A DNA stretch of 62,652 nt, the filler included, from Candidatus Coatesbacteria bacterium (GTDB lineage Bacteria; JAFGND01): assembly GCA_016927185.1 (NCBI GenBank). It is 5 parts of 5 records of this genome, joined end to end, with 100 filler letters (N's around TTAATTAATTAA, not from the genome) between each part and the next. Parts side by side here need not be neighbours in the genome. Positions count along the whole stretch, not along the records: positions 56,532 to 62,652 come from JAFGND010000015.1; 4 more parts are not named here. One strand, written 5' to 3'. Position numbers and translations under genes: made by a program. Of this stretch, positions 31,837-60,957 are shown in pieces (position 1 is the first letter of the stretch; every line of letters starts with the position of its first letter). The notes beneath the pieces are model-generated. The model had not been told where the DNA came from and did not search any database. It saw only the letters and a list, made by a program, of their open reading frames with translations.

Positions 31837-31936
31837 NNNNNNNNNNNNNNNNNNNNNNNNNNNNNNNNNNNNNNNNNNNNTTAATTAATTAANNNNNNNN
31901 NNNNNNNNNNNNNNNNNNNNNNNNNNNNNNNNNNNN
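31837..31936. other. artificial contig linker
   Basis: N44-TTAATTAATTAA-N44. Confidence 0.98.
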
Positions 31937-44495: not shown

Positions 44496-44595
44496 NNNNN
44501 NNNNNNNNNNNNNNNNNNNNNNNNNNNNNNNNNNNNNNNTTAATTAATTAANNNNNNNNNNNNNNNNNNNNNNNNNNNNNNNNNNNNNNNNNNNN
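44496..44595. other. artificial contig linker
   Basis: N44-TTAATTAATTAA-N44. Confidence 0.98.
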
Positions 44596-47595: not shown

Positions 47596-47695
47596 NNNNN
47601 NNNNNNNNNNNNNNNNNNNNNNNNNNNNNNNNNNNNNNNTTAATTAATTAANNNNNNNNNNNNNNNNNNNNNNNNNNNNNNNNNNNNNNNNNNNN
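47596..47695. other. artificial contig linker
   Basis: N44-TTAATTAATTAA-N44. Confidence 0.98.
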
Positions 47696-56431: not shown

Positions 56432-56531
56432 NNNNNNNNNNNNNNNNNNNNNNNNNNNNNNNNNNNNNNNNNNNNTTAATTAATTAANNNNNNNNNNNNN
56501 NNNNNNNNNNNNNNNNNNNNNNNNNNNNNNN
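56432..56531. other. artificial contig linker
   Basis: N44-TTAATTAATTAA-N44. Confidence 0.98.
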
Positions 56532-57462: not shown

Positions 57463-57639
57463 ATGATTATTCCTATTAATCCTGAAGACTTTGGTCTAAC
57501 AAAAGAAGCATTTGATAATTTAAGCCAAGAAGAAAAAGACACACTTATAAGTGAAAAATTTGCATCAATTCAATATCCAAAATCAACTGCTGGAGCAACT
57601 TGTATTGTTGATGCTAGTGGTATAATTAATCAAAGTTAA
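57463..57639 (+). CDS. 58-aa small protein not in the ORF track
   Basis: GGAGGT RBS at 57451-57456; MIIPINPEDFG...STAGATCIVDASGIINQS; terminator follows. Confidence 0.7.
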   Translation: MIIPINPEDFGLTKEAFDNLSQEEKDTLISEKFASIQYPKSTAGATCIVDASGIINQS

Positions 57640-57684: not shown

Positions 57685-57748
57685 CTTGACCAGTTTGTTT
57701 CCTGTTTCATGCAAAGTTGACATTAACAAAATTGAGAAGGAGCAAAAT

Positions 57749-59578
57749 ATGTCTGCTCAGACAGAAAATAAAAAGCAAACCGAATTGCTTGATAGAACCT
57801 TGTTTCTGGATGTAATAGAGAAAGGAAAGCAGGAAGGTTTGCTTTCTTTCAACGAAGACCGCTCAAAGATAATTTATCATTGCAAGAGGGATTATACAAC
57901 AAGTTTCAAGAATCCAGAGGAAACAATAAGAGCTTATTATTACACGGAGCTTGTCTTGGATTATCAATATCCAAAGAAGAGAATTGATTTAGAGGTTCTT
58001 ATTCCAAAGAGATTGCCTGAAGACAGAGCGGATATAGTTGTCTATGAAGATGATGATTGCTTGAAACCGTATATTACTGTTGAAGCAAAAAGGGAAGGTA
58101 TAACTGACGCTGAATTCAATCAGGCAATAGAACAGGTCTTTGGAAATGCTGTTTCAATAGCTTCTGTATATGCTGTTGTTATTGCAGGATTTACAAAAAG
58201 GTCTTTCAAGTTGAAAGGTTTTCCTCCTCTGGAAAGAAAGAAGAACATAATAGCAGTTATTCCAAAGAAATATGAAAAGGAACAGAAATATACTTACATA
58301 AAAGGTGATGCATTTAATGACTTGAAAATAGTCAAGCAGGAAGACTTGAAGAATGCGCTAAAGAAATCGCATGACACAGTCTGGGAAGGTGGCAAGCGAG
58401 ACCCTACATCAGCATTTGATGAGGTTTCAAAACTGATTTTCTGCAAACTGAAAGACGAGAAAGATACAAAGAAAGGTGAACCTTACAAGTTCCAGATTGG
58501 TTCGCATGAGCTTGCTTCTGAAGTGTCTGACAGGATAAGGAAGATATATGAGAAAGCAAGAGAAAGGGACGCAGAAGTTTTCAAGGAAAGTATTAATCTG
58601 GAAGACGAGATATTATTCAGTGTAGTAAATCACATTCAGGAAATCAGTTTCAGCAAGACTGAACTGGACATAAAAGGTGAAGCATTCGAAGAATTCATGC
58701 AGGGATTTTTCAAAGGTCAGATGGGTCAGTTTTTTACTCCGAGAAAAGTGGTTGATTTCTGTGTCAATATGATGAGTCCTGACAAAGATGCTCTCATTCT
58801 TGATCCTGCTTGTGGCAGTGGTGGCTTCCTTCTTAATTGTCTGGAACATGTAAAAAAGAGGGTTGAACAGGATTACGAGGAAGAGGCATATAATCAATGG
58901 CATGAATTCGCAAAAAACAATCTCTTTGGTATTGAAGTAAATGAGAAGATTGCTCGCGTTTGCAAAATGAACATGATTATACACGATGACGGACATACAA
59001 ATATCATAAGCACAGATGCCCTAAAGGAAATAGAAAACAAGGACAAGAATATCAAGGGAATAATTGACCTGAACAAGAAAATTGACAAGAATAGCTTTGA
59101 TTTGATACTGACTAATCCGCCCTTTGGAGCAACAATAAAAAGAAGCGAAAAGAGCTATTTAAATAATTATAACTTAGGCAAGAACAAGAAGAACCAGAAA
59201 ACAGAAATCCTGTTTATTGAAAGAGTAATTGAGTTTGTCAAACCAGTAACTGGCAGGATTGCTATTGTATTACCTGACGGGATATTAACAAACTCATCTC
59301 TTCAATATGTAAGGGATTTCATTATGGAGAAATGTCAGATACTTGCAATAGTATCTCTTCCTCAGACTGCATTTTCATATTATGGTGCAGGTGTAAAAGC
59401 TTCTCTTGTTTTCCTTCGTAAAAAAGGTGACTATGAAATGCTGGAAGATTATCCTATTTTCATGGCAATAGCTGAAAAAATAGGATATGATGCAACAGGC
59501 AGGGAAATACCTGAAAATGATTTTTCAGAAATTCTAAAAGCATACAAGAACTTCAAGGAGCATAAACACCCTTTTTAG
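57749..59578 (+). CDS. fused restriction endonuclease (HsdR_N-type PD-(D/E)xK) and N6-adenine methyltransferase, type IIB/IIG-like RM subunit
   Basis: PEE.IR, RADIVV...VEAK; GQFFTP, DPACGSGGF, NPPF; AAGGAG RBS before ATG 57749. Confidence 0.88.
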   Translation: MSAQTENKKQTELLDRTLFLDVIEKGKQEGLLSFNEDRSKIIYHCKRDYTTSFKNPEETIRAYYYTELVLDYQYPKKRIDLEVLIPKRLPEDRADIVVYEDDDCLKPYITVEAKREGITDAEFNQAIEQVFGNAVSIASVYAVVIAGFTKRSFKLKGFPPLERKKNIIAVIPKKYEKEQKYTYIKGDAFNDLKIVKQEDLKNALKKSHDTVWEGGKRDPTSAFDEVSKLIFCKLKDEKDTKKGEPYKFQIGSHELASEVSDRIRKIYEKARERDAEVFKESINLEDEILFSVVNHIQEISFSKTELDIKGEAFEEFMQGFFKGQMGQFFTPRKVVDFCVNMMSPDKDALILDPACGSGGFLLNCLEHVKKRVEQDYEEEAYNQWHEFAKNNLFGIEVNEKIARVCKMNMIIHDDGHTNIISTDALKEIENKDKNIKGIIDLNKKIDKNSFDLILTNPPFGATIKRSEKSYLNNYNLGKNKKNQKTEILFIERVIEFVKPVTGRIAIVLPDGILTNSSLQYVRDFIMEKCQILAIVSLPQTAFSYYGAGVKASLVFLRKKGDYEMLEDYPIFMAIAEKIGYDATGREIPENDFSEILKAYKNFKEHKHPF

Positions 59579-59623
59579 TCCCCCCTGACTTGGAAGACAA
59601 GATTTTTATTACAAGGTCAGGGG
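59555..59623 (+). promoter_or_regulatory. predicted -1 programmed ribosomal frameshift signal
   Basis: AAGGAG 59555-60; C_CCT_TTT 59569-75 directly before TAG; stem CCCCTGACTT 59582-91 / AGGTCAGGGG 59614-23. Confidence 0.75.
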
Positions 59624-60957
59624 AAATAGAAGGTGCATTTAATCCATTAAGATATAAAAAGAAAATAAATTTTCCCAAAAGTGCTAAAATAAGAGATTTT
59701 GGATTAGTAATAAGTGAAACATTTATCCCAGCTAAATTATATCCTGATCAAATCTTTGATTGGTTAAGAATTGATAATGTTGAGATAGGTGGTTTTTTAA
59801 ATGAAAATTCTATAATTACAGTCTTGGGAAAGGAAATCAGCAAAAGCACAGTTCAGTTAGCTTTAGAGGGAGATATACTTATAGCTAGACTAGGTCCATC
59901 TCTAGCTAATGAGAAAATATTGATAGCACCTAAAACAAAAAATACATTAGTAGTTTCAGGGGAATTTATTGTTTTTAGATCTTCTGGTTTGCAGCCAGAA
60001 GTTATTGTTAATATTCTGAAAACAAAAAAGTATTTAAATTATGTTTTGTCAAAAGGAAGAGGAGCTACTCCCAGCAGATTTAGAATAGATAGAAATGATT
60101 TTTCTGAACTCAGTTTTCCTTTAATGGAAAAAGGTTGTTTCGATAAAATTTACATTCTTGTTAGAGAGATAAATAATAGATATATGTCTTTTATACAGCA
60201 AGCGGATTCCCTTCTTGCTTCTATTGACGAATATGTCCTTTCAATGCTTGGCATAGAAATGCCAGAACTGGAAGACAAAAAGGTATTCACAGTATCATCA
60301 ATAGAATGCAAAGGCAAAAGAATTGATCCGCATTATCATAGTCCTAAATTCGAAGTAATAGAAAATAGTTTAAAAACAGGTTTATATAAACCTGTTATAT
60401 TGGATATATTTATTACTAAAATACATTATGGGATTTCAATTGAAAATGAATATGTAAAAAAAGGAATACCTTTATTGAGAATTCTAAATTTGAAACCTAA
60501 TGAGATAGATATAAGTGATGTAGTTTATTTAGATGAAAGTAAAAGGAAAGAAATCGGTTCAGGGTTCGTATATAAAGATGATTTATTAATCTCAAGAAGT
60601 GGTTCTATTGGAATTGTAGCAGTTGTTCCAAAAGAAGCAGATGGTTTTGCTTTTGGTTCTTTTATGATTAAACTTTGTCTAAATGATGATATAAACAAAA
60701 ACTTTGTGACTATTTGGTTGAATAATAAAGTTTTACAGAATTTGATTTTCAGGGAAAAGATTGGTGCTATTCAAGGTAACATAACAATAGATACTATTAA
60801 AAATTTTCTTATTCCTCTCCCCCCTCCCCGCATCCAAACCCAGATAGCTGACGAAGTAAAGAACCGAATGAACAAGGCAAAGGAATTGAAACAGGAAGCA
60901 AAGAAACTGCTGGAACAGGCAAAAGAGAAAATAGAAGAAATGATTTTAGGAGAATAA
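59575..60957 (+). CDS. HsdS-like specificity subunit with two TRDs, in the -1 frame (ORF track TTG start 59590)
   Basis: GDILIARLG, DDLLISRSGSIG, IPLPPPRIQTQI; two modules with coiled-coil spacers. Confidence 0.88.
   Translation, partial: LVPPDLEDKIFITRSGEIEGAFNPLRYKKKINFPKSAKIRDFGLVISETFIPAKLYPDQIFDWLRIDNVEIGGFLNENSIITVLGKEISKSTVQLALEGDILIARLGPSLANEKILIAPKTKNTLVVSGEFIVFRSSGLQPEVIVNILKTKKYLNYVLSKGRGATPSRFRIDRNDFSELSFPLMEKGCFDKIYILVREINNRYMSFIQQADSLLASIDEYVLSMLGIEMPELEDKKVFTVSSIECKGKRIDPHYHSPKFEVIENSLKTGLYKPVILDIFITKIHYGISIENEYVKKGIPLLRILNLKPNEIDISDVVYLDESKRKEIGSGFVYKDDLLISRSGSIGIVAVVPKEADGFAFGSFMIKLCLNDDINKNFVTIWLNNKVLQNLIFREKIGAIQGNITIDTIKNFLIPLPPPRIQTQIADEVKNRMNKAKELKQEAKKLLEQAKEKIEEMILGE

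Follow-up and report, generated by a model that had tools for sequence, protein, structure and literature searches.

It is known that the Type IIB enzyme BsaXI is a complex of (RM)2S composition, where RM is a nuclease-methyltransferase chain and S is the specificity subunit (available part of PMC11997821). In the case of EcoKI, an engineered fusion between the methyltransferase (M) and S subunits requires the addition of free M for DNA cleavage in vitro, and its authors proposed that each enzyme contains one free M and one fusion (available part of PMC3510504). In this work, the junction between an RM gene and its S coding region was analysed in a stretch of DNA of 62,652 nucleotides (nt) from a Candidatus Coatesbacteria bacterium (assembly GCA_016927185.1), referred to as the window; its sequence, compared with that of homologous loci, suggests that the junction is very probably a programmed -1 ribosomal frameshift site of a BsaXI/BcgI-like restriction-modification system.

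Programmed -1 frameshifting yields the tau and gamma products of Escherichia coli dnaX, as well as the fusion proteins of IS911/IS3 orfA-orfB and of phage lambda G/GT. To our knowledge, most documented cases of programmed frameshifting in bacteria concern insertion sequences (IS), phage genes, dnaX, and prfB. In the available part of PMC4066793, dnaX is named as a true frameshift case, the stimulators of IS3/IS911 and the use of U_UUU_UUC in IS elements are described, and the motifs H_HHU_UUY and V_VVA_AAR are reported to rank with those giving the most efficient -1 frameshifting in E. coli.

Organization of the RM/S Junction in the Window

The RM open reading frame (ORF; 57749-59578, on the forward strand like all the features of the junction described below) ends with CAC CCT TTT TAG and harbors, in the RM frame, the slippery heptamer C_CCT_TTT (59569-59575), directly followed by the zero-frame stop codon TAG (59576-59578), which marks the end of free RM. 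A 6-nt spacer (59576-59581) separates the heptamer from a hairpin (59582-59623), the predicted stimulator, whose arms (59582-59591 and 59614-59623) form 10 base pairs, including one G.U pair, around a 22-nt loop. The S coding region (59575-60957), consisting of 460 codons from the shift site plus the TAA stop codon at 60955-60957, has an offset of exactly -1 relative to RM; translated from position 59575, it begins with L V P P D L E D K I F. The sole nearby start-like codon of the S frame is a TTG (59590-59592), which is part of the 5' stem arm, is not preceded by a Shine-Dalgarno (SD) sequence and codes for a Leu of the conserved linker; it is located 14 nt past the RM stop, and the next ATG of the S frame 548 nt past it. 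A first-pass annotation of the window, in which frameshifting was originally proposed, had described this junction together with an echo of the linker at the start of the second target recognition domain (TRD) of S, and all of its sequence statements hold on re-reading.

The -1 frame is open from 59566 only, because of a TAA at 59563-59565, and the absence of a stop codon between the two frames is little evidence taken alone. In the 62.6-kb window, 67 inverted repeats of at least 10 nt within 40 nt were counted, at least 12 being artefacts of the N spacers. It is on the homologous loci that the argument for something more than chance rests.

The first-pass annotation had also included an SD-like box in the signal. 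The sequence AAGGAG is indeed present 8 nt upstream of the heptamer (59555-59560), as a possible local stimulator, but it does not stand as a conserved part of the signal, since an SD-like 4-mer occurs 6-17 nt upstream in only 16/29 of the loci sharing the design of the window (see below), where it coincides with K/E-E/D codons. The upstream AAGGAG may still act in this host, which makes use of SD sites: an SD-like 4-mer precedes 19/40 long ORFs of the window, compared with 12.7% of random 16-mers, and the RM gene has its own SD sequence AAGGAG at 57737-57742, 6 nt upstream of its ATG (57749).

Survey of Homologous RM/S Junctions

Homologous loci were retrieved by RM-protein scans; the best 80 of 114 genome relatives and the best 80 of at least 304 metagenome relatives, together with the window, formed a set of 161 loci. 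A variety of organizations has been disclosed in this set. In 69 loci, a separate S gene with its own start adjoins the RM stop, in the +1 frame (42 loci), in the -1 frame (22 loci), or in frame 0 (5 loci); in 33 loci, RM and a TRD are fused in frame; 29 loci share the design of the window, i.e., heptamer, hairpin, and S in the -1 frame. The remaining ones have no long ORF downstream of RM (21 loci), an RM gene running off the contig (7 loci), or a broken S (2 loci, L134 and L135). The design of the window is found in 8/81 loci of the genome set (window counted) and in 21/80 loci of the metagenome set. The contrary outcome considered in the first-pass annotation, that is, homologues whose S genes have their own start and lie in random frames, does occur in the separate-gene class (69/161), but not in the 29-locus class of the window; in the latter, an alignment of the junctions revealed the conserved heptamer, the -1 frame, and the covarying stem that had been expected there.

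In the other 28 loci of this class, the heptamer is TTTTTTC (21 loci), AAATTTT (4), TTTTTTT (2), or GGGAAAG (1), in all cases in the RM frame, and the five heptamers of the class all belong to the H_HHU_UUY and V_VVA_AAR groups of efficient motifs (as given in the available part of PMC4066793). The RM stop is located either immediately past the heptamer (0 nt, 2 loci) or one codon further (3 nt, 27 loci). All the loci of the class (29/29) have an in-frame heptamer at a distance of 0-3 nt from the RM stop that follows it, compared with 3/125 other loci. Moreover, the spacer between heptamer and stem is 6 nt long in all the 28 loci in which it can be measured, whichever the position of the stop (L175 being cut by the contig end inside the stem).

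Two further arrangements were observed in the survey. In eight loci of an archaeal and candidate-phyla-radiation-rich subclade (L027, L036, L043, L050, L076, L098, L127, and L138), a non-S ORF of 76-272 codons directly follows RM, with a hydrophobic N-terminus in those that were read. L152, considered as a candidate A-run frameshift site, was rejected on the basis of a one-base deletion upstream of its A10 tract.

Conservation and Covariation of the Hairpin

A covariance model (R1) was trained on 25 junctions with only six outer pairs specified. In the 1.14 Mb of surveyed loci, R1 matches the 29 junctions of the class, four of which were outside the training set. Only two further matches were obtained, one to the reverse strand of L096, owing to its palindromic character, and a weak one with E = 0.82. 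In four whole carrier genomes it matches once per genome. When R1 was run blind on 150 other Bacteroidota genomes, two new sites were found, both of which terminate a gene homologous to RM (for L186, 47% identity with E 6e-100), each site consisting of T_TTT_TTC, one codon, TAA, and the hairpin, followed by an S ORF of 462 or 477 codons in the -1 frame.

Base pairs were counted on a model-based alignment of 27 sites (A3), which was used instead of a MAFFT alignment (A2) because the latter set the 3' arm of the window one column off. In the outer helix, 98.1% of 155 cells are paired, whereas slid-register controls reach 39-65%. Three of the six outer pairs vary on both sides (e.g., pair 1 is GC in 14 sites and CG in 12, pair 5 is CG in 17 and UA in 6), and the doubly changed cells are 19, versus 7.5 +/- 1.7 in shuffled alignments, none of the 500 shuffles being as high. 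The GC-to-CG swap involves the change of a Ser/Thr codon in the 5' arm, matched by a synonymous Gly change in the 3' arm. The comparison establishes a signal that is conserved, covarying, bound to the -1 frame, and specific to this class of junctions.

In two loci, L174 (2038-2122) and L180 (3465-3570), the loop of the frameshift hairpin contains an additional insert; that of L180 folds into an inner hairpin, GC-rich and about 40 nt long, resembling an inserted small repeat element.

Linker, In-Frame Fusions, and Evolution of the Junction

In the -1 frame, conservation of the amino acid sequence begins right at the first codon past the heptamer, with the pattern hydrophobic-S/T/P-P-D/E/G-W/L/F ... 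K-I/V-F. An alignment of the linkers (A4) revealed that this stretch extends beyond the Met of stand-alone S proteins by about 9-10 residues on the N-terminal side, and that it is co-linear with the linkers of the RM-TRD fusions that occur naturally in frame, as well as with the beginning of the second TRD of the window. In the in-frame fusions, neither the heptamer, nor the stop codon, nor the hairpin is found at the junction, the median fold energy of the best of 80 windows being -12.5 kcal/mol, versus -22.4 kcal/mol for the fixed window of the frameshift class. The nucleotide identity of the signal exceeds that of the adjacent RM 3' end in 10/13 pairs of loci, the bordering TRD being hypervariable, with about 50% identity.

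A FastTree phylogeny was constructed on 159 RM proteins, L069 and L100 having been dropped for their garbled frames. In this tree, fusions nest within frameshift clades, L046 and L060 being located among L041, L054, and L130, and fusions of the L167-L172 group among L159-L163. The junctions of the nested one-TRD fusions (L046, L060, L167, L168, L170, and L172) have been rewritten and are not one-base indel derivatives, so that the two architectures interconvert in evolution.

In 31/33 in-frame fusions the extension has the size of one TRD (213-279 amino acids, aa), and such chains could dimerise symmetrically. Two-TRD fusions were observed only in L090 (437 aa) and L091 (433 aa), both from Brachyspira metagenome-assembled genomes, and both carry an A10 tract at the junction (L090: 5754-5763; L091: 1964-1973). 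Since in these two loci both alternative frames stop 2-5 codons past the A10 tract, slippage there would release free RM; the tract may represent a slippage route to free RM or, alternatively, a phase-variable tract.

Points Against Frameshifting and Alternative Explanations

Several points weigh against the interpretation of the junction as a programmed frameshift site. The fold of the window alone is moderately unusual (z = -2.17, with 10/200 shuffles folding as well), and the window is an outlier of its own class: its heptamer is unique (1/29), a TTG lies shortly past its stop codon, and, of the uncut, insert-free loci, only one has a covariance-model score below that of the window (38.5 bits, E 1.5e-06). 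The sequence check of the junction rests on assembled contigs of the probable source run: a Logan contig, i.e., an independent assembly, is identical to the window over 59000-59861, with no gap in the T5 and C6 runs, and this contig-level identity speaks against an assembly indel at the junction, although it stays below read-level proof. No contig of the two metatranscriptome sets from the same study matched the stretch, a result that speaks neither for nor against expression. The 29 loci are related to one another, and on the FastTree phylogeny the trait needs 8-9 changes, at least four of them forced by well-supported branches, 19 rows of one deep 24-row clade being occupied by it. The sequences compared in A3 are related and, in addition, this alignment was fitted to the structure; a register-free pair table gives the same covariation pattern. 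As regards the proposed stoichiometry, there are Type IIB enzymes in which R, M, and S form a single chain with two TRDs (available part of PMC11997821), and therefore free RM may not be strictly required. Four of the 26 complete loci of the class have a shortened S (43, 98, 222, and 361 codons), so that some copies are decaying, while in the other 22 the S frame is intact (454-488 codons). The shortened copies belong to L122, L130, L171, and L180.

Lastly, the 29-locus class had first been chosen by eye, and for this reason the loci were re-sorted by a single neutral criterion. The 94 loci with a long ORF abutting the RM stop were split according to the presence of an ATG within -30..+60. Among the 24 loci lacking it, 23 have the ORF in the -1 frame together with both the heptamer and a match to the RNA model, with the only exception of L150 (frame 0, TTG at +9). 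Among the 70 ATG-bearing loci, both features are present in two (L155 and L158) and the heptamer only in one (L116).

These data bear on a first alternative, in which S would be made separately, by termination-reinitiation or by weak initiation at the TTG at 59590, the heptamer and the hairpin being incidental or acting as modulators of the coupling. The 14 nt between UAG and TTG are compatible with it, and 69/161 relatives regularly couple translation through a stop and a start that overlap or adjoin; two loci of the frameshift class also have an NTG overlapping the stop (ATG in L158, GTG in L153). Translational coupling has been described in EcoKI as well (available part of PMC3510504). Nevertheless, 14 of the 23 start-less loci have no ATG, GTG, or TTG anywhere in -30..+60, and no start position is conserved among the loci of the class. 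The TTG of the window is embedded in the stem and has no SD sequence, in a host that uses them, and residues encoded upstream of it are conserved and co-linear with the fusion linkers. Furthermore, reinitiation leaves the in-frame heptamer, the fixed 6-nt spacer, and the exclusive -1 frame unexplained. On this basis, we consider separate initiation of S improbable.

A second possibility is that slippage at the T/C runs occurs in DNA (phase variation) or during transcription, giving a subpopulation of genes or messengers with RM and S in one frame. Tracts of the A10 type are known to support transcriptional slippage, and one is found at this very junction in L090 and L091; T5-T7 runs are present in most loci of the class. 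However, the runs of the window are short (T5 and C6), and neither AAATTTT (4 loci) nor GGGAAAG (1 locus) has a homopolymer longer than four bases inside the heptamer. A hairpin conserved at a fixed 6-nt distance is a mark of ribosomal, not transcriptional, slippage, and no length variant was observed, either in the independent contig or in the 29 assemblies, all in the same -1 configuration. This makes slippage in DNA or RNA synthesis still less credible than reinitiation.

That the junction is merely a defect, i.e., a frameshift mutation or an error of assembly in a gene whose ancestor was fused or coupled, with S left unexpressed, might be imagined for a metagenome-assembled genome in 109 contigs, the more so as truncated S frames exist in 4/26 related loci and plainly broken relatives were found (the disrupted S genes of L134 and L135, and L152), but this explanation is the least plausible and appears close to refuted by the comparative evidence, since the same configuration recurs in 29 loci of many assemblies, isolate genomes (L041, Deminuibacter soli; L096, Flavobacteriaceae bacterium M23B6Z8) included, and in two further genomes, with varied heptamers, compensatory changes in the stem, and mostly intact S frames, and since the independent contig agrees with the window at the junction.

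Identity of the Restriction-Modification System

The zero-frame product of the RM gene is a nuclease-methyltransferase fusion of 609 aa, matching Pfam N6_Mtase (8.6e-47; gamma-class N6-adenine methyltransferases) and HSDR_N_2 (3e-11; a PD-(D/E)XK-type domain); the residues D95, E112, K114, and N456-P-P-F459 are invariant across eight relatives. Its best relative in the Protein Data Bank is RM.BsaXI (8w0p, E 4.6e-38), which ranks ahead of Type I M subunits; the match spans residues 175-564 only, and the RM of BsaXI is longer (916 aa). The S region contains two TRDs and is HsdS-like, matching Pfam Methylase_S (7.8e-12) and PADLOC Specificity_I (1.4e-37 over residues 55-459). No ORF for a helicase (HsdR) is present on the part of the contig within the window. 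The RM domains, the two-TRD S, and the absence of a helicase in view therefore point to a BsaXI/BcgI-like, motor-less RM + S system, i.e., a helicase-less, two-gene (Type IIB-like) restriction-modification system. A MADS identity was rejected, the scores being below the NCBIfam equivalog cut-offs (MAD2, 332.6 bits versus 720; MAD5, 75.4 versus 400). Close relatives were not found among annotated collections of phages or E. coli genomes, and plasmid collections gave only distant or partial "N-6 DNA methylase" matches.

Proposed Mechanism and Subunit Stoichiometry

If the junction is a programmed -1 frameshift site, ribosomes translating the RM gene would meet C_CCU_UUU at the moment when the hairpin, which begins 6 nt further on, is located at the mRNA entrance. 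The majority of them would end at the adjacent UAG, releasing free RM (609 aa), while a fraction would slip by -1 with simultaneous re-pairing of the two tRNAs (tRNA-Pro from CCU to CCC, tRNA-Phe from UUU to UUU) and continue through the start-less S frame, giving an RM-S chain of about 1069 aa. As the S frame has no start and is reached by slippage, S would be made only as a fusion. Free RM and RM-S might then assemble into a complex of (RM)2S composition, in a ratio set by the frameshift efficiency; slippage itself, its efficiency, and the assembly of the products are inferred.

By analogy with BsaXI and with the engineered EcoKI fusion, frameshifting might therefore serve to balance RM and RM-S subunits for an enzyme equivalent to (RM)2S. 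The pattern of the natural fusions, 31/33 of which have one TRD while the two-TRD pair has the A10 tract, fits such a role. In a broader perspective, towards which we incline only slightly, the loci would represent a recoding-dependent, clade-spanning class of restriction-modification systems where S exists only as a frameshift extension and the frameshift efficiency sets one free RM per RM-S. If this is true, the family displays four interchangeable answers to the two-to-one subunit problem: coupled separate genes, dimerising one-TRD in-frame fusions, -1 frameshifting, and an A10 slippage tract in two-TRD fusions.

Genomic Context of the Locus

In the window, several contigs follow one another, connected at 31837-31936, 44496-44595, 47596-47695, and 56432-56531 by runs of N on both sides of a TTAATTAATTAA linker; since separate contigs are joined there, the parts across these runs are not physically linked. 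The RM/S locus lies on contig C24 of the 109-contig, 93%-complete metagenome-assembled genome, whose closest relatives among the genomes compared share with it the domain only. Upstream of RM there are two ORFs, one of 301 aa, starting at the contig edge (56534-57439), and one of 58 aa (57463-57639), neither of which gave a Pfam or PADLOC match. None of the flanking ORFs (301, 58, and 69 aa) matches a known family or has a homologue beside the other surveyed loci, and therefore no conserved third gene is recognizable here.

Novelty and Significance

Full-text literature searches revealed no account in which an RM or M gene is linked to an S gene by frameshifting. None of six restriction-modification terms occurs in the available portion of the recoding review PMC5009743, and no such case is reported in the main texts of the genome-wide frameshift surveys PMC3711429 and PMC4066793, as far as these were available, although their supplementary tables (the 146 clusters of GeneTack and 69 heptamer clusters) could list the family. 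In PMC3850674, frameshifting in a C-REase fusion was considered and not detected, which is a different case.

If the proposal is true, no enzyme of restriction or anti-phage defence would have been described before as subject to recoding. Its confirmation would add a new functional class, namely a cellular defence enzyme whose gene contains a -1 signal that is both structured and conserved, spread over Bacteroidota, Melainabacteria, and gut and sediment metagenomes. It would also account for many of the start-less or frameshifted-looking "hsdS" genes annotated beside "N-6 DNA methylase" genes, so that genome annotation and REBASE-type catalogues would need a "ribosomal slippage" model for the family, and it would provide a natural answer to the question of the source of free M raised by the engineered EcoKI M-S fusion.

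Comparison with Known Systems

In the junction itself there is a close likeness with dnaX, with which the window shares a heptamer followed by a hairpin, a stop codon very near the shift site, and an SD-like box upstream. In both cases one gene would give two chains with a common N-terminal part, in a set ratio and within one complex, as is proposed here for RM and RM-S. The two differ in that the shifted product of dnaX is the shorter one, whereas here it would be longer and bear a whole extra subunit; moreover, the heptamer of dnaX is A_AAA_AAG, while U_UUU_UUC prevails in the present family, where the SD-like box is not family-wide.

With IS911/IS3 orfA-orfB and phage lambda G/GT, the locus shares a downstream ORF in the -1 frame without its own initiation, predicted here to be translated only as a trans-frame fusion, as well as a hairpin (or pseudoknot) as stimulator and, as proposed here, a product ratio that matters for function. 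The products of those genes are a transposase and a tail chaperone, respectively, whereas here a restriction-modification enzyme is concerned, and in the present junctions the zero-frame stop lies 0-3 nt from the heptamer, with the spacer fixed at 6 nt.

As far as the enzyme is concerned, BsaXI and BcgI likewise combine an RM fusion chain with a two-TRD S and have no helicase subunit, but in them S is a separate protein translated from its own reading frame (for BsaXI, available part of PMC11997821); BsaXI is known to cut its bipartite site on either side (available part of PMC11997821). The EcoKI MSFusion (Type IMS) demonstrates that a covalent M-S chain can be functional and that it needs free M in vitro, as would fit an enzyme in which, for each S, one methylase chain is fused and another is free; it is, however, artificial, the natural one-base offset between the two genes having been removed, and the source of free M in vivo was left unexplained (available part of PMC3510504). 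Unlike in the EcoKI MSFusion, in the system described here a natural signal would supply both chains.

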